A stretch of 64,000 bases of DNA from assembly GCA_964543265.1 (NCBI GenBank), contig CAZIWN010000001.1, positions 104,577-168,576 on the forward strand, given 5' to 3'. The translations under genes and the position numbers were made by a program. Position 1 is the first letter of the stretch, and every line of letters begins with the position of its first letter. The notes under the pieces are model-generated. The model was given only the letters and a program-made list of their open reading frames with translations, made no database searches and was not told the DNA's origin. This document shows, piece by piece, positions 970 to 64,000 of the stretch. Source of the DNA: an uncultured Candidatus Saccharibacteria bacterium (GTDB lineage: Bacteria > Patescibacteriota > Minisyncoccia > UBA6257 > 1-14-0-10-40-38).

Positions 970-1689
970 ATGGAATTAAACGATCGTTCCAAAAGAATAT
1001 TAGAGGCAGTAATAAAAGAGTTTATCCGTCTTGGAAAACCTGTTTCTTCTTCAGAAATTTGTTCTGAATATGATTTAGGTGTTAAGTCGGCCACCGTAAG
1101 AAACGAGCTCAATAAACTCGAAGAGCTTGGCTATATTTATCAGCCCCACACCTCAGGAGGAAGAATTCCAACCGATGCCGGATACAAATTTTTTGTTTCT
1201 TCTTTTATGGATGGTGTCGCTATAGATTTAGCAAAAAAGGTGTCTGGAATTTTTGAATCTATTTTTGAAGAATTAAATTCTTCTGACACAAAAGGCATAG
1301 TTGAAACAATGTCTAGCGAATTAGGTCTTTTAAGTATAGGCAAATCTTCTCATGAAACAGAGGTGCATAAGAGCGGTTTAGATAATTTATTCGAAAAATT
1401 AGTTGGCAATTTTTTAATAGAAGACGAGCTTGAACTTTTCAGAGTCGTTCAAGATTTCGAAAATATAGATGAAAATATAGATGATTTAAAAAAATTTATT
1501 TCCACTAAACCATCTCCGCTGGTTTTCATTGGTAAAAGCCCGATAACCAAAAGTGAAAATTTATCAGTTATAGTAGATATATTCAAAAATGGAGATGAAG
1601 AAATAATTTTAGGAGCCATCGGGCCTAAATGGATGGATTACAGAAAACCACTGAAATTTTTTAGAGAATTAAAAGGTCTTGTAAATTAA
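970..1689 (+). CDS. hrcA: Heat-inducible transcription repressor HrcA, short form of 239 aa.
   Basis: N-terminal winged HTH (RSKRILEAVIKEFI..GKPVSSSEI......SATVRNEL..LEELGYI.QPHTSGGRIPTD.GY). It lies downstream of CIRCE and upstream of grpE-dnaK. Confidence 0.8.
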   Translation: MELNDRSKRILEAVIKEFIRLGKPVSSSEICSEYDLGVKSATVRNELNKLEELGYIYQPHTSGGRIPTDAGYKFFVSSFMDGVAIDLAKKVSGIFESIFEELNSSDTKGIVETMSSELGLLSIGKSSHETEVHKSGLDNLFEKLVGNFLIEDELELFRVVQDFENIDENIDDLKKFISTKPSPLVFIGKSPITKSENLSVIVDIFKNGDEEIILGAIGPKWMDYRKPLKFFRELKGLVN

Positions 1690-8911: not shown

Positions 8912-9421
8912 ATGCCGGCAACCGCAACAATGATCGAAGTCTTCCAGATTCTCGGATTGGAGATGATAAAGCGTCCAGTTTTTTCGGATCTGCTTCCAAA
9001 AACTGGATGCGTGCCAGATAAGAGAATCACGGAACAAGTAATGGGCGAGCCGTATTCTCTATCAGCTACAAGAGATGACCATTGGCGATCCGGAACAAGA
9101 GAAATCGCTCTAGTTGAACATCCGCCAGTTTGGTCAATGTCTACTGTCTGCGCGAATTCAGCCAAGCTCGGTCTGGGTCTATTGGATCCATACGATGTTC
9201 TATATTTCGCCATCAAGCATCCAGGGGTCCAAAGGTCTGGCCCAATCGCCTTCGTTCATCAGCCGCTTTTTCTAGGCGAGAACCGGAGAGGCCTTTTTGC
9301 TCTCGTTCTCGGTTTTGATGGGCAAGACAGAACCATTAATCTTGTCAGCTGGTTCGATACTTGTGATGCCGTTCCCGGAGTTCGCTACGCCCTTTTGAAG
9401 AGGCCAGAGAAGAAGAAGTAG
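8912..9421 (+). CDS. Hypothetical 169-aa protein, intermediate to high GC, unknown function.
   Basis: Strong SD site AAGGGGGAG lies 7 nt upstream of the ATG, and a terminator follows the ORF. Its composition is foreign to the host. Confidence 0.55.
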   Translation: MPATATMIEVFQILGLEMIKRPVFSDLLPKTGCVPDKRITEQVMGEPYSLSATRDDHWRSGTREIALVEHPPVWSMSTVCANSAKLGLGLLDPYDVLYFAIKHPGVQRSGPIAFVHQPLFLGENRRGLFALVLGFDGQDRTINLVSWFDTCDAVPGVRYALLKRPEKKK

Positions 9422-10702: not shown

Positions 10703-11437
10703 ATGGCTAGGCTTAACGGAAAAAACAGTGGCTATTCCAATAAAATGGAAAAAACTACAAATATATTTTCTATTATTTGGTTATTAATGATTTTCTGGTT
10801 ATTTTATATATATTTTAAAAATATAAATAAAATTAATAATTTTCCAAGCCTAATTACTGCTTTAATTATTTTTAGTCCATTAACTGCATTTACCTATATT
10901 CAAATTATAAAATGGCAGAAAATTTCTAAAAAATTTCATCAAGGACAAGTCGGCGAAGCTTTAGTTCTTTTAGAATTATTAAAATTGCCGGACAATTATT
11001 CCATACTCCAAGACATAAAGTTTAATGGCGAATATTGGAATACTGATTTTGTTGTAATTGGTCCAACTGGGATTTTCACTATAGAGGTAAAAAGTCATAA
11101 GGGGTTTATTGAATTTAATAAAATAGAAAGACAGTTAACAATAAATAACTTACCATTTGAAAAAAATATTATATTTCAAGCAAACAGACAAGCAATGGGA
11201 TTACGAAGGTATTTAATGGAGTCAATAAATTTTTTTACACATATTAATCCCGTTATTGTTTTTTCAAGCTATTTTACTAAAATGCGCTTTGGTATGAAGT
11301 CAGTTGCTGATACGGGAGTTCAAGTTATTCAAAAAAGATGGCTAAGAAAAGTTATAGAAAAAGGAACAGGAAATCTAGATAATGAAATTATCTTAAAAAT
11401 AGAAAAAGCGATGATTAATTTAACATCTTTAAATTAA
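10703..11437 (+). CDS. Membrane-anchored NERD (nuclease-related domain) protein.
   Basis: N-terminal TM helices, then GEALVL..L..LPDNY.ILQDIKF......DFVVIGPTGIFTIEVKSHKG, which matches the NERD signature. Confidence 0.7.
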   Translation: MARLNGKNSGYSNKMEKTTNIFSIIWLLMIFWLFYIYFKNINKINNFPSLITALIIFSPLTAFTYIQIIKWQKISKKFHQGQVGEALVLLELLKLPDNYSILQDIKFNGEYWNTDFVVIGPTGIFTIEVKSHKGFIEFNKIERQLTINNLPFEKNIIFQANRQAMGLRRYLMESINFFTHINPVIVFSSYFTKMRFGMKSVADTGVQVIQKRWLRKVIEKGTGNLDNEIILKIEKAMINLTSLN

Positions 11438-14216: not shown

Positions 14217-14417
14217 ATGAACAGTCACATGCACCCGCACGATCACGATCACGGCGTTCGCGCTTCCGACGATCGGCATCACGGTGTTCACGGCGACCAC
14301 AGTGATCACAGCGACAGTGGCCACAGGCACCACAGGGGTGCGCACGGTCACGATCACAAGGCGCACGGTCACCACCACGGGTCGGTCCACAAGCAGAAGA
14401 GGGGCGGCGCGCACTGA
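14217..14417 (+). CDS. Histidine-rich 66-aa peptide (about 38% His) with GC-rich codons; likely metal binding.
   Basis: SD site AAGGGAG lies 6 nt upstream of the ATG at 14217. The run is MNSHMHPHDHDHG...HGHDHKAHGHHHGSVH. A terminator follows. Confidence 0.55.
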   Translation: MNSHMHPHDHDHGVRASDDRHHGVHGDHSDHSDSGHRHHRGAHGHDHKAHGHHHGSVHKQKRGGAH

Positions 14418-14775: not shown

Positions 14776-14781
14776 TGCGGC

Positions 14782-14851
14782 TGCGGGACCTGGGCTCGAA
14801 CCAGGATACCAGCTTTCAGAGAGCTGTGTCCTACCATTAGACGATCCCGCA
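14782..14851 (-). tRNA. tRNA-Gln (anticodon CUG) with a U1:A72 pair; CCA is not encoded.
   Basis: Cloverleaf folded by hand: acceptor TGCGGGA/TCCCGCA, U8, anticodon stem CAGCT/AGCTG with loop CTCTGAA, and T-arm CTGG TTCGAGC CCAG. Confidence 0.8.
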
Positions 14852-25242: not shown

Positions 25243-25248
25243 GAAAAA

Positions 25249-25407
25249 ATGTTTGAAAATTTTAAAAATTGGTTTAAAGAAAATGAAAAGAAGATATTAT
25301 TTATCCTTATAATATTTCTAAGTATCACTTTAAGTTTAGGATTAGGATTCTTGCTTGGAAAAAAATCAAAAGTCACACCAATTATTATCGAGAAAAATTC
25401 AAATTAA
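25249..25407 (+). CDS. 52-aa single-TM peptide (MFENFKNWFKENEKKILFILIIFLSITLSLGLGFLLGKK...).
   Basis: Hand-translated small ORF in native AT-rich sequence, followed by a strong terminator. Confidence 0.35.
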   Translation: MFENFKNWFKENEKKILFILIIFLSITLSLGLGFLLGKKSKVTPIIIEKNSN

Positions 25408-25414
25408 ATTTTAA

Positions 25415-25456
25415 GTGCCACCTCCAGCGCTTGCGCTAAATAGGTGGCACTTTTTC
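25415..25456. terminator. Terminator GTGCCACCT...AGGTGGCAC followed by TTTTT; also T-rich on the minus strand.
   Basis: 9-bp perfect stem. Confidence 0.8.
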
Positions 25457-25466
25457 TTCCCCGTCT

Positions 25467-25688
25467 TCAGTTCAGGACGGTGACGAATCTCCCGATTGGT
25501 GTGAAGACTTGTTCACCGTCGACGATCTCGAGTTGTCCGAGAACTTCGCCACATCCCGGTACGGGGCAAGAAACGTTTGAGTGTTTGCAGGACGGGGCAG
25601 CGACCTTGCACTGGCCATACCTTCCTTCCCACTTGCAAACGCACCTGATCTGCGTCTCCGCACCGCACTCCTTCTGACTCATCGTCAT
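25467..25688 (-). CDS. Cys-rich 73-aa protein with 8 Cys (CGAETQIRCVCKWEGRYGQCKVAAPSCKHSNVSCPVPGCG) and GC-rich codons.
   Basis: SD site AGGAGG lies 9 nt upstream of the ATG at 25688. It is wedged between a terminator and the rnpB promoter. Confidence 0.5.
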   Translation of the reverse strand: MTMSQKECGAETQIRCVCKWEGRYGQCKVAAPSCKHSNVSCPVPGCGEVLGQLEIVDGEQVFTPIGRFVTVLN

Positions 25689-25761
25689 TTCTTTCCGCCT
25701 CCTGAAGCTGGATTCGAAACTAGACATAATAATAACAATAATTAAGCCAAAAAGGCAAGAT

Positions 25762-25790
25762 TTGTCTATTTTTAATATTTATGGTATACT
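25762..25790 (+). promoter_or_regulatory. rnpB promoter TTGTCT-17-TATACT.
   Basis: Spacing places the transcription start near 25797, which is the first nucleotide of the P1 helix. Confidence 0.55.
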
Positions 25791-25796
25791 TTTAAA

Positions 25797-26141
25797 GTCG
25801 CTTAGGTGATTACACGGCATCGCAAAAAAATGCCGTGAGGAAAGTCTGGACTCCTGTCTTGCGAGAAATCGCAAGTAAACGTACCGGTTAAAAGCCGGCT
25901 GGGTAATCCAAGAGGTGCGAAAAGTGACGCTCAAAGACGAAAGAATTTGAGAATCCGCTTGCGGATTAACCTTCTCTATAGTGAAGGAGAGGGGTGCAAC
26001 GGCTAAATCCTTACGAGGTGCAAGATCGTGCTCTAAATTAAAACTTAGAGAGAATCGCTTGAGCCTTAAAGTAATTTAGGGCCTAGATAAATTATCACCG
26101 CTTCGCCGAAAGGCGGAAACAGAATCCGGCTTATTAGCGAC
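25797..26141 (+). ncRNA. rnpB: RNase P RNA (bacterial type A).
   Basis: Conserved GAGGAAAGUCUGGACUCC (P4 5' strand), ACAGAAUCCGGCUUA (P4 3' strand) and a P1 pairing GTCGCT/AGCGAC, followed by a terminator. Confidence 0.85.
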
Positions 26142-26155
26142 AAAAAATATCAGAA

Positions 26156-26180
26156 GTCCGCGCCTAAAGCGCGGATTTTT
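26156..26180 (+). terminator. rnpB terminator TCCGCGC ctaaa GCGCGGA followed by TTTTT.
   Basis: Read from the sequence. Confidence 0.8.
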
Positions 26181-26196
26181 GATATATGGTTTAATA

Positions 26197-26225
26197 TTGC
26201 TTTTATGACAACAATCTGTTATTAT
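26197..26225 (+). promoter_or_regulatory. Candidate promoter TTGCTT-17-TATTAT for the small membrane ORF.
   Basis: Read from the sequence. Confidence 0.4.
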
Positions 26226-26269
26226 GATTAACAGTTCTTCGGTTAAGGTCATTGGGAGGGAAGGCCTTG

Positions 26270-26458
26270 GTGGAATTCGGAAAGAGGCTTTGCTTCGCTC
26301 TGGTCTGGACTGTTTCCTGGGTTCTTCCGAAGGAATCTAGGGACGAGGAAGAAGAGGTGAGTGGTGTCTTGAAGCTTCTCCTCTTCGCCCTTGTCGGAGT
26401 TGGAACGGCCTTGGTTCTTCACTTCTATCGGATGAGGCAAAACTTCATCCAGATTTGA
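26270..26458 (+). CDS. Small two-TM membrane protein of 62 aa from the GTG start (68 aa if the TTG at 26252 is used), GC-rich.
   Basis: SD site GGGAGGGAAGG lies 5 nt upstream of the GTG. Two hydrophobic helices are separated by an acidic EEEE loop. A terminator follows. Confidence 0.45.
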   Translation: MEFGKRLCFALVWTVSWVLPKESRDEEEEVSGVLKLLLFALVGVGTALVLHFYRMRQNFIQI

Positions 26459-26477
26459 AAGAAGGCCAAGTGTCTCA

Positions 26478-26558
26478 AATGGCGTGCTGCCACCAAGTAG
26501 CGCGCCATTTTTTTTGTAAAAAAAGACCACCCATTACTCGCTCGCGAGCTAGGGTGGT
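26478..26558. terminator. Pair of convergent terminators sharing a central T8/A7 tract: ATGGCG...CGCCAT followed by T8 on the plus strand, and ACCACCC...GGGTGGT followed by a T-tract on the minus strand.
   Basis: Read from the sequence. Confidence 0.65.
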
Positions 26559-26570
26559 TTTCTGTCGCTG

Positions 26571-26789
26571 TTAACGAGGAGTAGTCGCTTCCCCGAACAG
26601 CATCGGTACTTCTATCAGATGCTTTTTATTGCATCCCTTCTTGCATTTCGGATGCGTCGAGCTCCCAAAATATGTATTGCCCTTTGGGATCTTACCACCG
26701 CACCCAGTGCAGGTACGATCCAAATGGGCAACATGATGTTCTGGAACCTCATCATCCTCTTCGTCGCTTCCGCCGTTGCCTCCACGCAT
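26571..26789 (-). CDS. Small zinc-ribbon protein of 72 aa from the ATG (CTGCGGKIPKGNTYFGSSTHPKCKKGC), acidic N-terminus.
   Basis: SD site GGGGAGGG lies upstream of the ATG. Its own promoter TTGAAA-17-TATAGT (26845-26873, minus strand) and its own terminator flank it. Confidence 0.5.
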   Translation of the reverse strand: MRGGNGGSDEEDDEVPEHHVAHLDRTCTGCGGKIPKGNTYFGSSTHPKCKKGCNKKHLIEVPMLFGEATTPR

Positions 26790-26876
26790 TGGGTTCGCCC
26801 TCCCCGTGAATGGATTGATGGTCAAGAAACGTGTACTGATATTTACTATAAAACATTCTTAAATAATTTTCAAAAT

Positions 26877-26920
26877 GAAAAGGCCCGGCTAGAACTATAC
26901 GTTCTATAACCGGACCTTTT
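26877..26920. terminator. Bidirectional terminator with a long imperfect stem GGCCCGGCTAGAAC tatac GTTCTATAACCGGACC, flanked by A4 and T4.
   Basis: Read from the sequence. Confidence 0.65.
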
Positions 26921-26946
26921 GCTCCGTCTTGCGGAGCCGTCGCCTT

Positions 26947-27153
26947 TCAGGCGGTGGCAACTGCGAGTTGCCGGCTCTCGGCGCGGAGCTCTGCGAGTTC
27001 TCCGCTCGAGAACAGATTGAGCAGTTCAGGCCACGTCGGCATCCTGCCGAGCTTCCGAGCCTTCCGCGCGATGATCTGCCGCATCGTGGGCACCGCGACC
27101 TCTTCTGAGCACTGATCGCAACCATTCGCGCAGCACTTGGATTCGCACGCCAT
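26947..27153 (-). CDS. Cys-rich 68-aa protein (N-terminal CESKCCANGCDQC, basic/helical C-terminus).
   Basis: A GGGGGG tract lies 7 nt upstream of the ATG. Copy B of the consensus promoter sits about 90 nt upstream. Confidence 0.5.
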   Translation of the reverse strand: MACESKCCANGCDQCSEEVAVPTMRQIIARKARKLGRMPTWPELLNLFSSGELAELRAESRQLAVATA

Positions 27154-27246
27154 CGTAGTTCCCCCCGAATGCCATTCTGATTTCGCCCTAAGGCTCGTCA
27201 GAGGACTTGTGAATGACTAGGGCCAATCCCTTATCATCACTCCTAT

Positions 27247-27276
27247 ATTATATCATACAATATATTAATTTGTCAA
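27247..27276 (-). promoter_or_regulatory. Near-perfect sigma70 promoter TTGACA-18-TGaTATAAT, copy B of the repeated promoter module.
   Basis: Read on the minus strand: CTATTGACAAATTAATATATTGTATGATATAAT. Confidence 0.7.
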
Positions 27277-27469
27277 TAGATAAAGCATAAAAAGCTAATA
27301 AAATAAGGATTTTAATATAAAAAATCTTAAAAATAAGGATTTTTTAACAACTCCAAATTTTCACCTCTTTACAAATTAAATTTACTTTGATATAATATGG
27401 AAATGAAGGTTGGACTCAAATCGTTATTAATAGTAGCGATGAGTCCAAAAAATAATTTAAAATAACTAT

Positions 27470-34590: not shown

Positions 34591-34821
34591 ATGGGTGCGA
34601 AGAGGGGATCTACGGTGAGGCAGGGATCTGTTGGCGGCGCCTCTTCTTCTACTGTCTTGAACCGACTGGCTCAACCCGACTGGAAGTTCAAGGGGGTTGA
34701 ACCGATTCGCGGGGCGATGAAGGGGTGCAGGTCTTGCACCTTCGATGGCGTGCCTCACGGTCAGTTCAGGGTGGGTGGTCCGAGGGGCGTCGTCTCCAGG
34801 TGTCCTTGCACGAACAGGTGA
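34591..34821 (+). CDS. Small 76-aa ORF (CRSC...CPC) in a GC-rich islet; coding status uncertain.
   Basis: SD site GAAGGGAG lies 6 nt upstream of the ATG. The Gly/Arg/Ser/Val-rich composition is typical of a random GC-rich translation. A 5' UTR hairpin CGCGCTT/AAGCGCG precedes it and a strong terminator follows. Confidence 0.35.
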   Translation: MGAKRGSTVRQGSVGGASSSTVLNRLAQPDWKFKGVEPIRGAMKGCRSCTFDGVPHGQFRVGGPRGVVSRCPCTNR

Positions 34822-34825
34822 TTTT

Positions 34826-44340: not shown

Positions 44341-45318
44341 ATGCCAAAAATATTTATTACAAGAAACATTCCAGAATCCGGAATTAAAATGCTCCGCGAT
44401 AAGGGTTATGAATTAGTTATTAATCCAAAAGACAGAGTTCTTTCCAAATCCGAATTAATCAAATCCATAAAAGGTAAGAATTACGATGCTGTTTTATGTC
44501 TTTTAACTGACAAAATAGATCAAGAAGTCTTCGATGCTTCTTCGTCATCTGTAAAAATCTTTGCTAATTACGCTGTTGGCACTGATAATATAGATCTTAA
44601 GTATGCTGCCACTAAAAATATTTTAATTTCTAATACTCCAGACGTTTTAACTAATTCAGTGGCCGAACATGCCTTTGCTTTAATACTTTCAATTTCAAAA
44701 AGAATTGTTGAGGCAGACGATTTTATGAGAACGGGAAAATACAAGGGTTGGGAGCCTAAATTATTATTAGGATCAGACGTTTACGGCAAAACTCTTGGTA
44801 TAGTTGGTTTGGGTCGTATTGGTGCCAGAGTCGCTCATTTTGCCATTAATGGGTTTGGTATGAGAGTTTTATATTATGATCCAAAACGAAATGAAAACTT
44901 TGAAAAAGATCAGCCAGGAGCAACCTACACTTCTAACTTGGATGATGTCTTAAAGGGTTGCGATTACATTAGTATCCATGTTCCACTTCTTCCAACCACC
45001 AAGCATTTAATTAATGAAGAAAAGTTAAAATTAATGAAGCCGACAGCTTATTTAATTAATACTTCTCGCGGACCAATAGTTGATGAAATAGCTCTTTCTA
45101 ATGCTTTAAAAAATAACACCATTAAAGGAGCCGCTTTAGACGTTTTTGAATTTGAACCTAAACTGTATTCCGGCCTCAAAAAACTTAAAAATATTATAGT
45201 AACCCCACATACAGCTTCTGCCACCATAGAAACCAGAGAAAGTATGTCAAAAATGTGCGCAGAAAATATTATCGCCGCTCTAGAGGGGAAAACTCCTCCA
45301 AATCTTGTGAAAATATAA
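44341..45318 (+). CDS. D-isomer-specific 2-hydroxyacid dehydrogenase (glyoxylate/hydroxypyruvate reductase-like).
   Basis: NAD-binding motif GIVGLGRIGARVA and catalytic-domain motifs. Confidence 0.85.
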   Translation: MPKIFITRNIPESGIKMLRDKGYELVINPKDRVLSKSELIKSIKGKNYDAVLCLLTDKIDQEVFDASSSSVKIFANYAVGTDNIDLKYAATKNILISNTPDVLTNSVAEHAFALILSISKRIVEADDFMRTGKYKGWEPKLLLGSDVYGKTLGIVGLGRIGARVAHFAINGFGMRVLYYDPKRNENFEKDQPGATYTSNLDDVLKGCDYISIHVPLLPTTKHLINEEKLKLMKPTAYLINTSRGPIVDEIALSNALKNNTIKGAALDVFEFEPKLYSGLKKLKNIIVTPHTASATIETRESMSKMCAENIIAALEGKTPPNLVKI

Positions 45319-45332
45319 ATTCTAAACTTTAA

Positions 45333-45366
45333 AAAGGCAAATCTTGTATAGATTTGCCTTTTTAAA
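45333..45366 (+). terminator. Terminator GGCAAATCT tgtata AGATTTGCC followed by TTTTT.
   Basis: Read from the sequence. Confidence 0.8.
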
Positions 45367-45379
45367 TACTATATGTTAT

Positions 45380-45638
45380 CCTTATAAGCGTCGGTAGGGC
45401 TGACTTTGTCTTAGCTCTGATAAGTGGGACACTTTGTGCCCACAACGAAATTCGGCGAATAGAGAGGCGTGGTCGCAAGATCACAATAGCTCCTCTCGTC
45501 AGAGTACGAGCAAATCAGCCCTACCGACACCATTTCAAAAACAAGGCACACGGTGCTGCTGGTACCCCCCCGTACCAGACACCGCTGAGTCACTGGTCCG
45601 ACGCTACCCGCAAGGGCGCGCTCGGACCTATTTTTTTA
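45380..45638 (+). ncRNA. Candidate structured ncRNA of about 260 nt. A 14-bp long-range helix (45390-45403 pairing with 45515-45528) encloses 111 nt. Then a GGTAC-C6-GTACC hairpin and a terminator GTCCGA...TCGGAC followed by T7.
   Basis: No credible ORF. Helices read directly from the sequence. Possible promoter TTGTAT-18-TACTAT (45344-45373). Confidence 0.4.
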
Positions 45639-45649
45639 CAATCTTAATT

Positions 45650-45676
45650 AAAACCCCGCCAATCGGCGGGGTTTTC
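45650..45676. terminator. Bidirectional terminator AAAACCCCGCC aatc GGCGGGGTTTT; it also terminates typA.
   Basis: Read from the sequence. Confidence 0.8.
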
Positions 45677-47479
45677 TTATTCAGTTCTCTTTCTTAGCGC
45701 ATTCTTTAAAATTCTTTTTCTTAATCTTATAGATGTTGGAGTGGCTTCTACCAATTCATCATCTCCAATATACTCCAAGGCCTCTTCAAGGGTTAATTTT
45801 TTAGCTGGCACCAAATCATCAGTTACAGCATCTGTTTTTGCTCTAAAGTTAGTCAACTGTTTAGCTTTACAAACATTTACCACCAAATCTTCTGATTTTG
45901 CATTTTGTCCTACAACTTGTCCTTCATAAACATCTTCTGCTGGAGCCACAAACATAACTCCTCTTTCTTGAGAGCTTAATAGAGCATAGGCGGTAGATTT
46001 TCCGGCCTCATGTGCAACCAAGGATCCATGTGGGCTAGTTTCTAATCCCTGTATTTTTGGGAAATATCCAGCGCTTAAACTATTTATAATTCCCATACCT
46101 TTAGTTTCTATAAGTAATTGATTTCTAAATCCAATAAGGCCCCTGGTAGGAATAAAGAAGTGAAACGCCACAGTTCCATTATCAACTGCCATATTTTTCA
46201 TTTCTCCCTTACGTTCACTTATCTTTTGAATAACCATTCCCGAATATTTTTCTGGTGCTTCAATCCAAACATCTTCGAATGGCTCCATGGTTACTCCGTT
46301 TTCTTCATTGAAAATAACTTCTGGTCTCGAAACTTGAAGTTCGTATCCTTCGCGTCTCATTTTTTCAATTAAAATTGAAAGGTGAAGTTCTCCTCTTCCG
46401 CTTACAATAAATTCGTCTGCAGATTTACCCTGCACAACCTGTAGCGCAACATCGCTATCTAATTCTTTCTCTAATCTTTCTTTTAGGTTTCTTGAAGTGC
46501 AATATTCTCCCTCTCTGCCAGCAAAAGGGGACGTATTTACTCCAAAAATCATTTTAACCGTAGGTTTTTCTATAACGATTGGCTTCATTCCTTTTGGATT
46601 TTCAGCTTCAGAAATAGTGTCTCCAATCATAATATTATCCACTCCAGCCACAGCTCCGATATCTCCAGCCACAAGCTCTGGAACTTCAACTTTTCCAAGT
46701 CCCGAAAAGACCATTAAGTTTGTAAGCTTAACTTTAGAAATTTCTCCATTTCTATGAACTACAGAAATCATCTGCCCAGATTTCATCTTTCCAGCAGTCA
46801 CTCTTCCAATTCCAATTTTTCCCTTAAAGTTGTCATAAGCTAAGGAAACAACCATCATTTGTAGTGTTTCATTTATTTCTGCTTTAGGTGTTGGGATGTG
46901 TTTAATAATCTCTTCAATTAATGGTTTAACTCCAGTCATATTCTCAAGTTCTGGGGCCATTCCAGTCTTTCCCAATCTTCCAGAAGCATAAACGATAGGG
47001 AAATTAAGCTGATCGTTATTTGCTCCTAATTCTATAAATAATTCTATAGTTTTTTCTAAAACATAATTAATTCTTGCATTGGGTTTATCAATTTTATTTA
47101 TAACTACAATAATCTTATGTCCCATCGCCAATGCTTTCTTTAAAACGAATCTTGTTTGAGGCATTGGGCCTTCTTGAGCATCGATAAGTAAAAGCGAACC
47201 ATCAGCCATATTTAAAACGCGCTCAACTTCTCCTCCGAAGTCTGCGTGTCCAGGGGTGTCTATGATATTAATTTTATATTCACCATAACGAACAGAAGCA
47301 TTTTTAGAGAATATAGTAATTCCTCTTTCTCTTTCAATTTCGTTAAAGTCCATTATCATCGATCCACCCTCTCCAAGCCTTCCAAGATCAGTTTCGGATT
47401 GTCTCAAAAGCGCATCAACTAAAGTTGATTTTCCGTGGTCGACGTGAGCAATAATTGCGATATTTCTTAAGTTATTCAT
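45677..47479 (-). CDS. typA: Translational GTPase BipA/TypA.
   Basis: G1 motif AIIAHVDHGKSTLVD and an EF-G-like domain organisation. Confidence 0.95.
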   Translation of the reverse strand: MNNLRNIAIIAHVDHGKSTLVDALLRQSETDLGRLGEGGSMIMDFNEIERERGITIFSKNASVRYGEYKINIIDTPGHADFGGEVERVLNMADGSLLLIDAQEGPMPQTRFVLKKALAMGHKIIVVINKIDKPNARINYVLEKTIELFIELGANNDQLNFPIVYASGRLGKTGMAPELENMTGVKPLIEEIIKHIPTPKAEINETLQMMVVSLAYDNFKGKIGIGRVTAGKMKSGQMISVVHRNGEISKVKLTNLMVFSGLGKVEVPELVAGDIGAVAGVDNIMIGDTISEAENPKGMKPIVIEKPTVKMIFGVNTSPFAGREGEYCTSRNLKERLEKELDSDVALQVVQGKSADEFIVSGRGELHLSILIEKMRREGYELQVSRPEVIFNEENGVTMEPFEDVWIEAPEKYSGMVIQKISERKGEMKNMAVDNGTVAFHFFIPTRGLIGFRNQLLIETKGMGIINSLSAGYFPKIQGLETSPHGSLVAHEAGKSTAYALLSSQERGVMFVAPAEDVYEGQVVGQNAKSEDLVVNVCKAKQLTNFRAKTDAVTDDLVPAKKLTLEEALEYIGDDELVEATPTSIRLRKRILKNALRKRTE

Positions 47480-47599: not shown

Positions 47600-47791
47600 A
47601 TGAGCTCTTCTGGTTCTGCGACGGCTGCACCAATCATCAGGGGACGTTGCTTAGAGCTTCGCTCCAACGCCCTTTCTCGTCGGGCTAGAAACGTGAATCA
47701 TCGCGCATTGAGCGATCACGCTCGCACCTGCGCCAGCTGCAGGGACCACCTTGCATCGCTCGCCGCCAAGCAATCGAGCTCGGCGTCTTGA
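47600..47791 (+). CDS. Small 63-aa ORF with an HxxxCxxC (ZAS-like) motif (HARTCASC); coding status uncertain.
   Basis: SD site AAGGGAGGG lies 9 nt upstream of the ATG. The Arg/Ser/Ala-rich composition could be a random GC-rich translation. A terminator follows. Confidence 0.35.
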   Translation: MSSSGSATAAPIIRGRCLELRSNALSRRARNVNHRALSDHARTCASCRDHLASLAAKQSSSAS

Positions 47792-62521: not shown

Positions 62522-63220
62522 TCAGTGATTCCAGTTTGTAGCGACTTCGCTACCAAACTGGTTTGCCAGACAATTCCTGAAGCGTTCGTCTTCCTCCTTT
62601 TCCCTCTTCAGGATGTCTCCAATTCCCTGCTGGTTCTCTTCGAGCTTCTCGAAGCTCATTCCGCAGAAGGCGCTTCTCGCCAATTCTTCGCAGTTGCGAA
62701 GCTTGGCAAAGCCGACGACGAGATCATTCAGCTGGGACGGCGACAAATCGTGGGGGTTGATCTCAGGCAAGGTCTCGAATAGATTCATCGCCATCTTTTG
62801 GAGATGATCGAGATCCATCTTGCCTTCTGGGTCCTGCAAGTAATTCCAGGATTGATGATCAACCAAGCTCTTCTTATGGAGCTTGGTAAGTTCGTGCTTG
62901 AGAAAATCGTTTTCCTTCTTCAGGGCTTCGATTTCCTCGTGAGCGCTTGTGAGCTCTTGGGTGAGCTCGAGGATGTTGCTCTGGCTCTCGCCAGTTTCGA
63001 TCTGAGGCTCGATTGCGCTCCTCTCGGCAACGATCTCCGTTTCCGGAGCCGTCGGCGCAAGTGTCACAGCCTGGTAGGCTTCGATCTTGGTAGGGTCATC
63101 TCCAACGAAGTTTTGTTGAGGGTGACAACCATAATCGACGCCGTGATTGTTGTTTCCTGAAATTGCGAACATGGCAACGCAGAAAACAACAAGCGCAATC
63201 AATCCGACAATTCGCTTCAT
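62522..63220 (-). CDS. Secreted coiled-coil protein of 232 aa with GC-rich codons.
   Basis: Signal or TM anchor MKRIVGLIALVVFCVAMFAISG, heptad-rich middle and SD site AAAGGAG upstream. Second gene of a two-gene minus-strand operon. Confidence 0.55.
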   Translation of the reverse strand: MKRIVGLIALVVFCVAMFAISGNNNHGVDYGCHPQQNFVGDDPTKIEAYQAVTLAPTAPETEIVAERSAIEPQIETGESQSNILELTQELTSAHEEIEALKKENDFLKHELTKLHKKSLVDHQSWNYLQDPEGKMDLDHLQKMAMNLFETLPEINPHDLSPSQLNDLVVGFAKLRNCEELARSAFCGMSFEKLEENQQGIGDILKREKEEDERFRNCLANQFGSEVATNWNH

Positions 63221-63249
63221 AGCTGACAGCTCCTTTGTCTTTCGAGTGA

Positions 63250-63295
63250 TCCCGGAAGGATCTCTTTCACTACTTAAGCCGAGATCCTTCCGGGA
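63250..63295 (-). promoter_or_regulatory. Perfect 15-bp intercistronic hairpin TCCCGGAAGGATCTC...GAGATCCTTCCGGGA with no U-tract.
   Basis: Sits between two co-oriented genes; possible processing, stability or attenuation element. Confidence 0.45.
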
Positions 63296-63311
63296 ATCTT
63301 CTCGGCTGCCG

Positions 63312-63851
63312 TCAGTTGTGGATCTTGTTGTTCGAGCCCTGGTAGTTTTCGACGTTGGCGTCGCTCCTGCCGTTCAAGTCAACGTCGTTGCCGTTGTTCC
63401 CGCCATCGGGACCAGTGAGCAACCCACCACCTTCGAAGTCGTGATCGTTGTTGTCGCAGTTCTTCTCGTTGACGCCGCCACCGTTCTTGATGTCGATGTC
63501 ATTCCCGTCGCAATCGTCCAGCTTGATCTTGCCGCCATCGGCATCGATCTCGTCGCCGTTCAGGCCTTCACCGCGGGCCAGTACGCCCTTCTTGATGGTG
63601 ATCTTGGCCTTCACGTAGTCGCCGTGATTCCAGATCTCTTCGACGACGACGTTGTCCGCGCTGTCTGGGCTGTTGGTGACCTTTCCTTCTCCGTCCGGAG
63701 CGGTCCAGGTCTGGCCAGGTCCCAGGCGAGTCGTGTGCGTTCCCGATGACGATCCGCTCGTCGCCGCGTTGGCGACCGACGTCCCTCCTCCGATCGCGAA
63801 GATCGCGACCAGAGCGAGTGCGAGCAAGGCGAAAATCTTCCTCGGATTCAT
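63312..63851 (-). CDS. Secreted Asp/Gly/Asn-rich protein with DxDxDG-like repeats; putative Ca2+-binding protein.
   Basis: Signal peptide MNPRKIFALLALALVAIFAIGGGTSVANA. Loops DADGGKIKLDD, DGNDIDIKNGG and DNNDHDFEGGG. SD site AGGAG upstream. Confidence 0.55.
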   Translation of the reverse strand: MNPRKIFALLALALVAIFAIGGGTSVANAATSGSSSGTHTTRLGPGQTWTAPDGEGKVTNSPDSADNVVVEEIWNHGDYVKAKITIKKGVLARGEGLNGDEIDADGGKIKLDDCDGNDIDIKNGGGVNEKNCDNNDHDFEGGGLLTGPDGGNNGNDVDLNGRSDANVENYQGSNNKIHN

Positions 63852-64000
63852 GCGTTCACTCCTGTGTTTTGGCCCGTTTTCGGTTCTTAAGCGAAATCGG
63901 GCTTAAGCCTACCTCCCCTTCTTTCGTCGCTGTTTTGTCAAGGTGCTACGAATCTAGGGCTACACACCCCAGTTTCATACTTAACATTACTCCTTTAACA

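Follow-up and report, generated by a model that had tools for sequence, protein, structure and literature searches.

The DNA analysed here (hereafter the window) is a stretch of 64,000 nucleotides (nt; 64 kb) with a G+C content of 35%, from contig CAZIWN010000001.1 of an uncultured member of the Paceibacterota, within the Candidate Phyla Radiation (CPR). The CPR, or Patescibacteria, comprise tiny, uncultured and probably host-dependent bacteria, and the window's nearest relatives are metagenome-assembled Candidatus Paceibacterota (Parcubacteria, CPR). Between a dehydrogenase gene and the end of typA lies a G+C-rich islet, in which a preliminary description, made from the letters alone, had proposed a structured RNA of ~260 nt. 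Our analysis supports the reading of positions 45390-45637 of the + strand as a gene for a structured non-coding small RNA (sRNA), putatively transcribed on its own, and corrects its length to ~248 nt. That the locus is a functional structured RNA gene on this strand is, in our view, very probable. The order of elements is the dehydrogenase gene, its terminator, the RNA unit, a second bidirectional terminator and the end of typA, with the 3′ arm of the dehydrogenase terminator hairpin overlapping the −35 element of the putative RNA promoter. The features are given below in window coordinates, P1 being the closing helix of the RNA and MFE the minimum free energy.

44341-45318, + strand: 2-hydroxyacid (D-glycerate) dehydrogenase gene, the 5′ neighbour of the RNA unit.
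45328-45366, both strands: bidirectional terminator hairpin of the dehydrogenase gene, with 17-nt perfect arms, a 5-nt loop and A5/T5 flanks.
45354-45382, + strand: promoter-like element, with a −35 TTGCCT (45354-45359), a 17-nt spacer and a −10 TATCCT (45377-45382).
45390-45403, + strand: 5′ arm of P1 (GUCGGUAGGGCUGA), forming a perfect helix of 14 base pairs (bp) with 45515-45528; its GUCGG base is invariant in the three homologues.
45404-45514, + strand: fast-evolving interior of the 5′ domain, with identical MFE and centroid structures.
45515-45528, + strand: 3′ arm of P1 (UCAGCCCUACCGAC), with a terminal CCGAC invariant in the three homologues.
45529-45544, + strand: A/U-rich linker (ACCAUUUCAAAAACAA), unpaired in the MFE structure and containing a conserved CYAUUUC.
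45545-45591, + strand: penultimate hairpin, with the apical loop at 45566-45571, within the C7 run 45565-45571; proposed seed.
45595-45637, + strand: intrinsic terminator, with the stem GGUCCGACGC...GCG.UCGGACC, an inner CCC-GCAA-GGG and then U7 (45631-45637).
45650-45675, both strands: separate bidirectional terminator (AAAACCCCGCC-N4-GGCGGGGTTTT), which ends the convergent typA and lies outside the RNA.
45677-47479, − strand: typA, convergent with the RNA unit.

As originally described, GTCGGTAGGGCTGA (45390-45403) is perfectly complementary to TCAGCCCTACCGAC (45515-45528), forming a 14-bp helix with 111 nt between its arms; an inverted-repeat search stretches it to 24 nt at 83% match. A helix of this length is beyond chance. 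Of 1000 dinucleotide shuffles of the 261-nt region, a single one contained a perfect inverted repeat as long as 13 nt and none contained one of 14 nt. Nowhere else in the window is there a G+C-rich perfect inverted repeat of 14 nt or more whose arms lie far apart, the others of this length being terminator hairpins or A/T-rich. The helix forms without any closing constraint, each P1 pair of the window having a probability of at least 0.986 in the unconstrained ensemble, and P1 pair probabilities are at least 0.97 in all three homologues. The unconstrained fold of 45380-45640 reaches −114.3 kcal/mol, compared with −73.6 ± 4.9 kcal/mol in dinucleotide shuffles (z = −8.3).

P1 is prolonged into the interior as an interrupted rod (UUUG/CAAA, CUU/GAG and GCUCUGAU/GUCAGAGU), with 29 bp in the window, and the rod is capped by three predicted hairpins at 45424-45443, 45446-45454 and 45462-45497, the last with a GCAA tetraloop at 45475-45478. 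Both sub-helices pointed out earlier, GGGACAC/GTGCCC and GAGAGG/CCTCTC, are present in the unconstrained MFE fold. The GGTAC-C6-GTACC hairpin lies at 45561-45576, with a C run (45565-45571) of seven C in total, and the terminator consists of a stem at 45595-45628 (GGTCCGA...TCGGACC) followed by T7 at 45631-45637. At the 5′ end, AGCGTCGG (45387-45394) is perfectly complementary to CCGACGCT (45598-45605) in the 5′ arm of the terminator, an alternative pairing that may compete with both P1 and the terminator and that is absent from L009 and L048, the two homologous loci introduced next.

Two further versions of the RNA were found, both in related Paceibacterota. In L009, a metagenome-assembled genome (MAG) from Lake Baikal (SIBX01000001), the RNA is on the − strand, from 7832 to ~7535; in L048 (ENA ERZ27280321 k141_13127), it is on the + strand, from 6100 to ~6398. 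Both copies lie downstream of the orthologous dehydrogenase gene, whose protein is 91% identical to that of the window. A typA synteny search of GTDB genomes returned L009 as the single close relative (typA 93% identical), and the dehydrogenase cluster at ≥90% identity, with three members, led to L048 and L049. Since L049 (Logan SRR12487045) is identical to the window, and L051 and L052 are identical to L048, these loci add no further version; the three RNA versions amount to two lineages. A gene for a PIF1-family helicase of 547 amino acids (aa), pif1, stands between the RNA and typA in L009 (5846-7489, − strand) and L048 (6450-8093, + strand), whereas tblastn found no pif1 anywhere in the 64-kb window. 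The convergence of the RNA with typA, reported in the preliminary description, thus holds for the window but is incidental, since the relatives carry the helicase gene in between.

Outside this group, no homologue was retrieved by blastn or nhmmer in the typA relatives L001-L003 (73-74%), in Lactobacillus or in other loci. A dehydrogenase synteny search of JGI/ENA metagenomes gave 28 loci (28-66% identity), and the RNA was downstream of the gene in none of the 15 closest (48-66%); the promoter-plus-5′-end pattern had zero matches in IMG/VR. There is a gap in sampling, with identity falling from at least 90% (three members) to 69% for the dehydrogenase and from 100% to 64% for pif1. Among the next relatives of the dehydrogenase (≤69%), typA (≤74%) and the helicase (≤64%), synteny is lost and no RNA homologue was found. 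A second copy of the RNA was found neither in the window nor in 358 kb of related loci, and blastn among this islet and 14 islets revealed no mutual similarity.

The promoter-like block, the GUCGG/CCGAC base of P1, the linker, the penultimate hairpin with its CCCC loop and a covarying terminator are common to all three versions. The first five P1 pairs (GUCGG/CCGAC) are invariant in the window, L009 and L048, and the linker keeps the consensus CCGAC-R-CYAUU(UC). Beyond the base of the helix, the variable pairs run U-A, A-U, G-C, G-C, G-C, C-G, U-A, G-C, A-U in the window, and G-C, G-C, (bulge), G-C, G-C, U-A, G-C, C-G, A-U, G-C in the relatives. Because a one-base bulge in L009 and L048 shifts the register, a formal pair count on the interior-removed alignment was dropped in favour of a manual comparison of P1 that started at the base of the helix. 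In this comparison, seven of the nine positions beyond the base have changed on both sides with pairing intact, so that P1 is fully paired in the relatives and its conservation by compensation, the test suggested for it at the outset, is borne out. The homologous terminators follow GGYCYGRA...UYCRGRCC and end in a T run (T6 in L009, T7 in L048); their stem shows both-sided changes at positions 3 and 5, and position 7 varies as A-U, G-C and G-U across the versions. Between L009 and L048, whose RNAs are 79.6% identical, RNAalifold gave 85 pairs with 11 one-sided changes that keep pairing, two two-sided changes and none broken, a count that leans towards structure because the structure was chosen on those two sequences. 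The indels that separate them fall in loops, with lengths not divisible by three.

The interior of the 5′ domain is not alignable between the window and L009 (local alignment score of 12, shuffle mean of 15). It measures 111 nt in the window and ~170 nt in L009, and its branching differs, with three short hairpins on the 29-bp rod in the former versus two long hairpins and a single-stranded stretch in the latter. At four-fold degenerate sites of the flanking genes, identity is 46-57% between the window and its relatives (34% expected by chance) and 67% between L009 and L048. Because neutral sequence is thus near saturation, an unalignable interior is no evidence of cassette replacement. The same sites are 78% A+T, whereas the RNA is strongly folded and has 54-55% G+C in all three lineages; its composition is therefore held by selection against a strong A/T mutation bias. 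The promoter-like block and the limits of the modules hardly vary. Selection thus keeps the 5′ domain folded rather than preserving its sequence, and acts on specific sequence in three places alone: the base of P1, the linker and the C loop.

The signals expected of a stand-alone gene are conserved in sequence as well. The stretch from ATACTATATG to GTCGG is identical at 23 of 29 positions between the window and L009, without gaps, and the spacer of the promoter-like element ends in TGT, the extended −10 form. A simple consensus scan does not list this element because it scores 8/12 against a threshold of 9. Transcription would begin at or near G45390, ~7 nt past the −10, and the RNA is probably started by a sigma-70-type extended −10 promoter and ended by the U7 terminator. 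The + strand has the promoter-like element upstream and the T run downstream in all three versions, and its folds hold 5-10 G-U pairs. It is also the more stable strand in each case (+/− fold energies of −114.5/−109.2, −138.1/−116.1 and −132.0/−123.6 kcal/mol in the three versions).

The earlier statement that the locus contains no credible open reading frame (ORF) holds: the RNA has no ATG, in the window or in the L009 copy, and neither strand has a reading frame that persists in the relatives. The single frame that happens to be open in the window copy is not open in the relatives, and the translations of open frames on both strands gave no Pfam match. A small protein gene preceded by a Shine-Dalgarno (SD) sequence, like those of other islets, was rejected on these grounds (no ATG, no kept frame, no Pfam match). 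Because the stem is compensated in the relatives and no ORF is conserved, a structured non-coding RNA, putatively transcribed independently, is supported over a spacer. The preliminary description had spoken of a regulatory or catalytic RNA rather than a spacer, and this stands except that nothing points to catalysis.

The Rfam scan that had been proposed was run with the 4227 covariance models of Rfam 15, at the gathering threshold on the whole window and with E up to 10 on 45300-45700 (401 nt), and no family was matched by the RNA. At the gathering threshold, the only match in the window is tRNA-Gln at 14781-14851; at E up to 10, the 401-nt region gave only look-alikes of terminator hairpins. 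The sole match touching 45390-45590 is to P27, over a 34-nt piece and with 19 bits against a gathering score of 50. RsaE and 6C are absent among the matches at E up to 10, there are no Rfam matches in the RNA homologues, and ARAGORN detected no transfer-messenger RNA (tmRNA). Three other candidates were considered and rejected: a riboswitch or cis-regulatory leader in the window, as typA, which comes next, runs in the opposite, convergent direction behind two intervening terminators; a retron non-coding RNA (msr-msd), as the neighbours are the dehydrogenase, typA and, in the relatives, the PIF1 helicase, with no reverse transcriptase; and 6S RNA, as the multibranch junction has no unpaired nucleotides on its 3′ side (in MFE and centroid structures) and no 6S model matches. 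The RNA represents a new family of an ordinary kind, namely a putative stand-alone bacterial sRNA, single-copy and confined to a narrow clade.

Small protein genes, rather than RNAs, account for most of the other G+C-rich islets in the window. Each islet gene has a promoter-like site, a strong G-rich SD-like leader, a short ORF rich in His, Cys, Arg or Gly, and a terminator; none of the three islet ORFs tested matched Pfam. They include the following.

14217-14417, 34591-34822, 47600-47791 and 8912-9421, + strand: islet small ORFs, each a short ORF with an SD-like leader.
27153-26947, 26789-26571, 25727-25467, 6483 and others, − strand: islet small ORFs, each a short ORF with an SD-like leader.

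Their leaders (GGGGGAG, GGGAGGG, GGGGGG, GGGAGAG) set them apart from the ordinary long genes of the window, 22 of 22 of which have A/T-rich upstream regions and no SD (e.g. those at 10703, 12054 (−), 24520, 42769 and 44341): SD-like leaders are seen before islet ORFs and before 0 of these 22. Several long genes carry a TATAAT-like −10 box 7-9 nt before the ATG. This suggests that the ordinary long genes may be translated from leaderless messages or otherwise independently of SD sequences. One islet ORF, of 63 aa and located upstream of typA, is shared by the three genomes (47600-47791, + strand, in the window; ~10150-10350 in L048; ~3900-3700, − strand, in L009). It keeps RC.ELR...N.RAL.DHAR.CA.C in all three, including an HxxxCxxC motif that we take to be akin to the zf-HC2 zinc finger of anti-sigma factors, and the remainder diverges fast.

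The linker and the C-rich apical loop are the sole conserved single-stranded sequences of the RNA. The loop of the window reads CCCCCC; L009 has CCCC and L048 has UCCCC, in the context CUCCCC in these relatives, and the stems that carry the loop differ in all three. The unpaired probability of the C run is 0.86 in the window and 1.0 in both L009 and L048. Our favoured, still tentative reading, to which we give a probability of roughly 0.4, is that of an sRNA acting in trans by base pairing, the exposed C-rich loop pairing with G-rich SD-like leaders (a C-loop/anti-SD mechanism). Such pairing would control the access of ribosomes to the leaders, and the small G+C-rich islet genes would be its natural targets. 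The 5′ domain closed by P1 would shield the RNA at its 5′ end and might serve as a protein-binding site, with sequence drift being tolerated provided that the fold of the domain is kept. Pairing of the loop with these targets is plausible but unproven, the genomic context being only suggestive.

Precedents exist among bacterial sRNAs that pair with their targets through C-rich loops (RsaE/RoxS, 6C and LhrC types), including sRNAs of Gram-positive bacteria. In Staphylococcus aureus, the Rsa RNAs, RNAIII and RsaE bind SD sequences through unpaired C-rich motifs and block initiation (PMC2790875). Like these RNAs, the RNA of the window has a putatively independent gene, a structured 5′ hairpin domain, a predicted classical terminator and an unpaired (U)CCC(C) in a hairpin loop of its most conserved part, with predicted complementarity to G-rich ribosome-binding sites, and its C motif stays while the stems vary. 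RsaE is named RoxS in Bacillus. The window RNA differs from the RsaE type in having no sequence or covariance-model similarity to it, in its length (250-300 nt versus ~100 nt), in its large, multibranched and very fast-evolving 5′ domain, and in its CPR host, whose ordinary genes in the window have no SD and in which targets are predicted only. The 6C RNA has two C-loop hairpins in a short RNA, whereas the window RNA has one C loop after a 140-nt domain, no Rfam match and a host in an unrelated phylum. What it shares with 6C, an actinobacterial RNA (Rfam family 6C), is a hairpin loop of six or more C; the Mycobacterium tuberculosis 6C is described as binding multiple mRNA targets through its C-rich loops without an RNA chaperone (PMC6486639). 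By analogy, the window RNA resembles RsaE and 6C in logic, not in membership.

Two further comparisons concern the architecture and the genomic setting. As in 6S RNA (SsrS), pairing between the two ends forms a long, interrupted closing rod, of 29 bp in the window RNA, and structure is kept while sequence evolves fast. Unlike 6S RNA, however, the window RNA lacks a two-sided central bubble, has a 110-nt 3′ extension with two more hairpins, matches no Rfam model and is confined to three close relatives. The orphan non-coding RNAs recovered from long G+C-rich intergenic regions of A/T-rich bacterial genomes by the GC-IGR approach (PMC6429828, PMC11109978) share with it a G+C-rich, ORF-free intergenic island, here in a 35% G+C genome, predicted structure and covariation; CPR/Patescibacteria genomes go unmentioned in PMC11109978, and the window motif is outside the families of Rfam 15.

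Several points weigh against the favoured explanation. Among 86 start regions, the four best duplexes with the C-loop hairpin are all islet ORFs (−22.6, −20.5, −17.2 and −13.7 kcal/mol; mean of all 86, −6.6 ± 3.9 kcal/mol), but this ranking is near circular because a C7 loop must prefer G runs, which are rare in an A/T-rich genome and located in the islets. The HxxxCxxC ORF upstream of typA, the only candidate target present in all three genomes, is not complementary in L048, where pairing by hand sets a GGAGGG leader against the CUCCCC loop. The mechanism also leaves the upkeep of a stable 5′ domain of 140-205 nt unexplained, and the covariation statistics are thin because there are only three versions, i.e. 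two lineages.

That 5′ domain could itself be the active part, as a protein scaffold, a sponge or a ribozyme, with the C-rich hairpin serving to stabilise the 3′ end. It is the most stable and most G+C-rich part of the RNA, folded in the three homologues (z = −8.3, −7.0 and −6.3); it contains a GNRA (GCAA) tetraloop, its GUCGG/CCGAC base is invariant, and the window and L009/L048 have an AUAG(A)GAGG...CUCCUC hairpin in common. We nevertheless regard this as doubtful, given that the interior is unconserved (an alignment score under the shuffle mean, lengths of 111 versus ~170 nt and different branching), a drift unlike that of a catalytic core or a specific protein site, and that no ribozyme or ribonucleoprotein RNA of Rfam is matched at E up to 10. 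A very divergent housekeeping RNA (6S, signal recognition particle (SRP), RNase P, tmRNA or Y RNA), missed by the Rfam models in CPR, has in its favour that CPR RNAs are often atypical and that the ends of the window RNA, like those of 6S, Y and RNase P RNAs, join in a long closing helix. It is hardly credible, however, that a housekeeping RNA would have an unconserved interior between genomes whose flanking proteins are 91-93% identical. The housekeeping families are moreover unmatched at E up to 10, both in the 401-nt search and in the homologues, ARAGORN reports no tmRNA, and the fold has neither a two-sided central bubble nor unpaired nucleotides on the 3′ side of its junction. Reading the three versions against the motifs of these families, we found no GGAA/AGCA motif of SRP domain IV and no CR-I/CR-V sequence of RNase P.

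The neighbouring helicase gene raises the question of a role in cis. In L009 and L048, pif1 starts ~50 nt past the RNA terminator in the same orientation, and a distant pif1 clade (L053, L058-L060) has a hypervariable G+C-rich region of ~350 nt upstream of the gene; the RNA might then be a leader or attenuator of pif1, and the window copy a remnant after gene loss. We judge this very unlikely. Although pif1 is missing from the window, the RNA there retains the promoter-like element, P1, the C loop and a strong terminator. In L009 and L048, pif1 is preceded by a TGnTAAGAT −10-like box of its own, located 7 nt upstream of the ATG, as are other genes here. There is no upstream gap at the pif1 loci L054-L056, the L053 region has no sequence signature of the RNA and no terminator, and the RNA is absent from five further pif1 contexts. 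The locus might also be non-functional or selfish G+C-rich DNA, either an element that resembles a miniature inverted-repeat transposable element and has terminal inverted repeats of 14 bp, or a small-protein islet in decay that includes a 40-codon GTG ORF on the − strand (45362-45484). Perfect terminal inverted repeats do bound a 139-bp unit, the other G+C-rich islets in the window are for the most part small SD-led ORFs, and the − strand reads GAGAGGAG-N5-GTG in the window, with an SD-like GAGAGGAG, and AAGGAGGA-N5-GTG in L009. A selfish element would, however, be a single-copy one in the window and the 358 kb of related loci, with no target-site duplication, and its inverted-repeat arms differ between relatives while remaining complementary, unlike a transposase site. 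The − strand ORF shrinks from 40 aa in the window to 27 aa in L009, has lost its start and shifted its frame in L048, and has no promoter-and-terminator arrangement on its strand. With the G+C content of the RNA (54-55%) also set against a neutral composition of 78% A+T, this origin is very improbable.

The locus is a clean sRNA candidate, combining gene-like signals, compensatory helix changes, a selected composition and an exposed C-rich loop that offers a testable handle. Should the C-loop mechanism prove wrong, an orphan RNA family would remain that is new and narrowly distributed. Our literature search returned nothing describing regulatory RNAs of CPR/Patescibacteria, including sRNAs of Parcubacteria. 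The context may outweigh the RNA itself, in that a C-loop sRNA could be a switch specific to SD-led islet genes. A broader proposal, which we consider rather unlikely, is that the RNA is one of a set of CPR-specific “anti-SD mimic” sRNAs gating SD-led, fast-evolving, G+C-rich and often Cys/His-rich accessory genes, with core genes being SD-independent. If true, this would amount to two-tier control of translation, C-rich-loop sRNAs competing with the ribosome for leaders, a mode undescribed for Patescibacteria.

Two other units with C-rich stretches were observed in related bacteria. In L009, between the dehydrogenase gene and the RNA (~8025-7905, − strand), there is an extra sRNA-like unit of ~115 nt with a strong terminator (z = −4.9) and a predicted interior loop that contains CCCC. 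Neither the window nor L048 has this unit, and the intergenic region therefore gains and loses small transcription units. In L003, a Paceibacterota MAG (JAGVPS010000042), positions 1035-1180 (+ strand) upstream of typA contain a TTGACA-17-TGATAAT promoter-like site and, after it, a perfect closing helix of 15 bp that also serves as the stem of a terminator and is followed by T7 (z of the fold = −4.7). Enclosed by this helix is a hairpin with a C-rich, anti-SD-like loop of 30 nt, predicted to be unpaired (UAUCCUCCCCUCCCCCAUUCCAACCCUCAC; UAUCCUCCCCUCCCCCAUUCC...), and the unit gave no Rfam match. As modelled, the C-loop units of L009 and L003 hint at a recurrent class.

G+C-rich intergenic blocks were also seen elsewhere. 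In another Patescibacteria clade, a block of 335-390 nt lies upstream of pif1 (L053 1166-1500, L058 1147-1500, L059 789-1142 and L060 699-1085), with flanks that are 100% identical between strains and a centre that is rearranged and cannot be aligned. Patescibacteria may commonly carry such hypervariable intergenic islets of high G+C content. Within the window, 25243-27469 is a 2.2-kb region without an ORF of at least 100 aa; it holds several G+C-rich blocks with no Rfam match and a few candidate small Cys-rich ORFs on the − strand. The largest and most G+C-rich block (up to 71% G+C) spans 62565-63973, where ORFs overlap on both strands and two are SD-led, with starts at 63220 (−) and 63851 (−).

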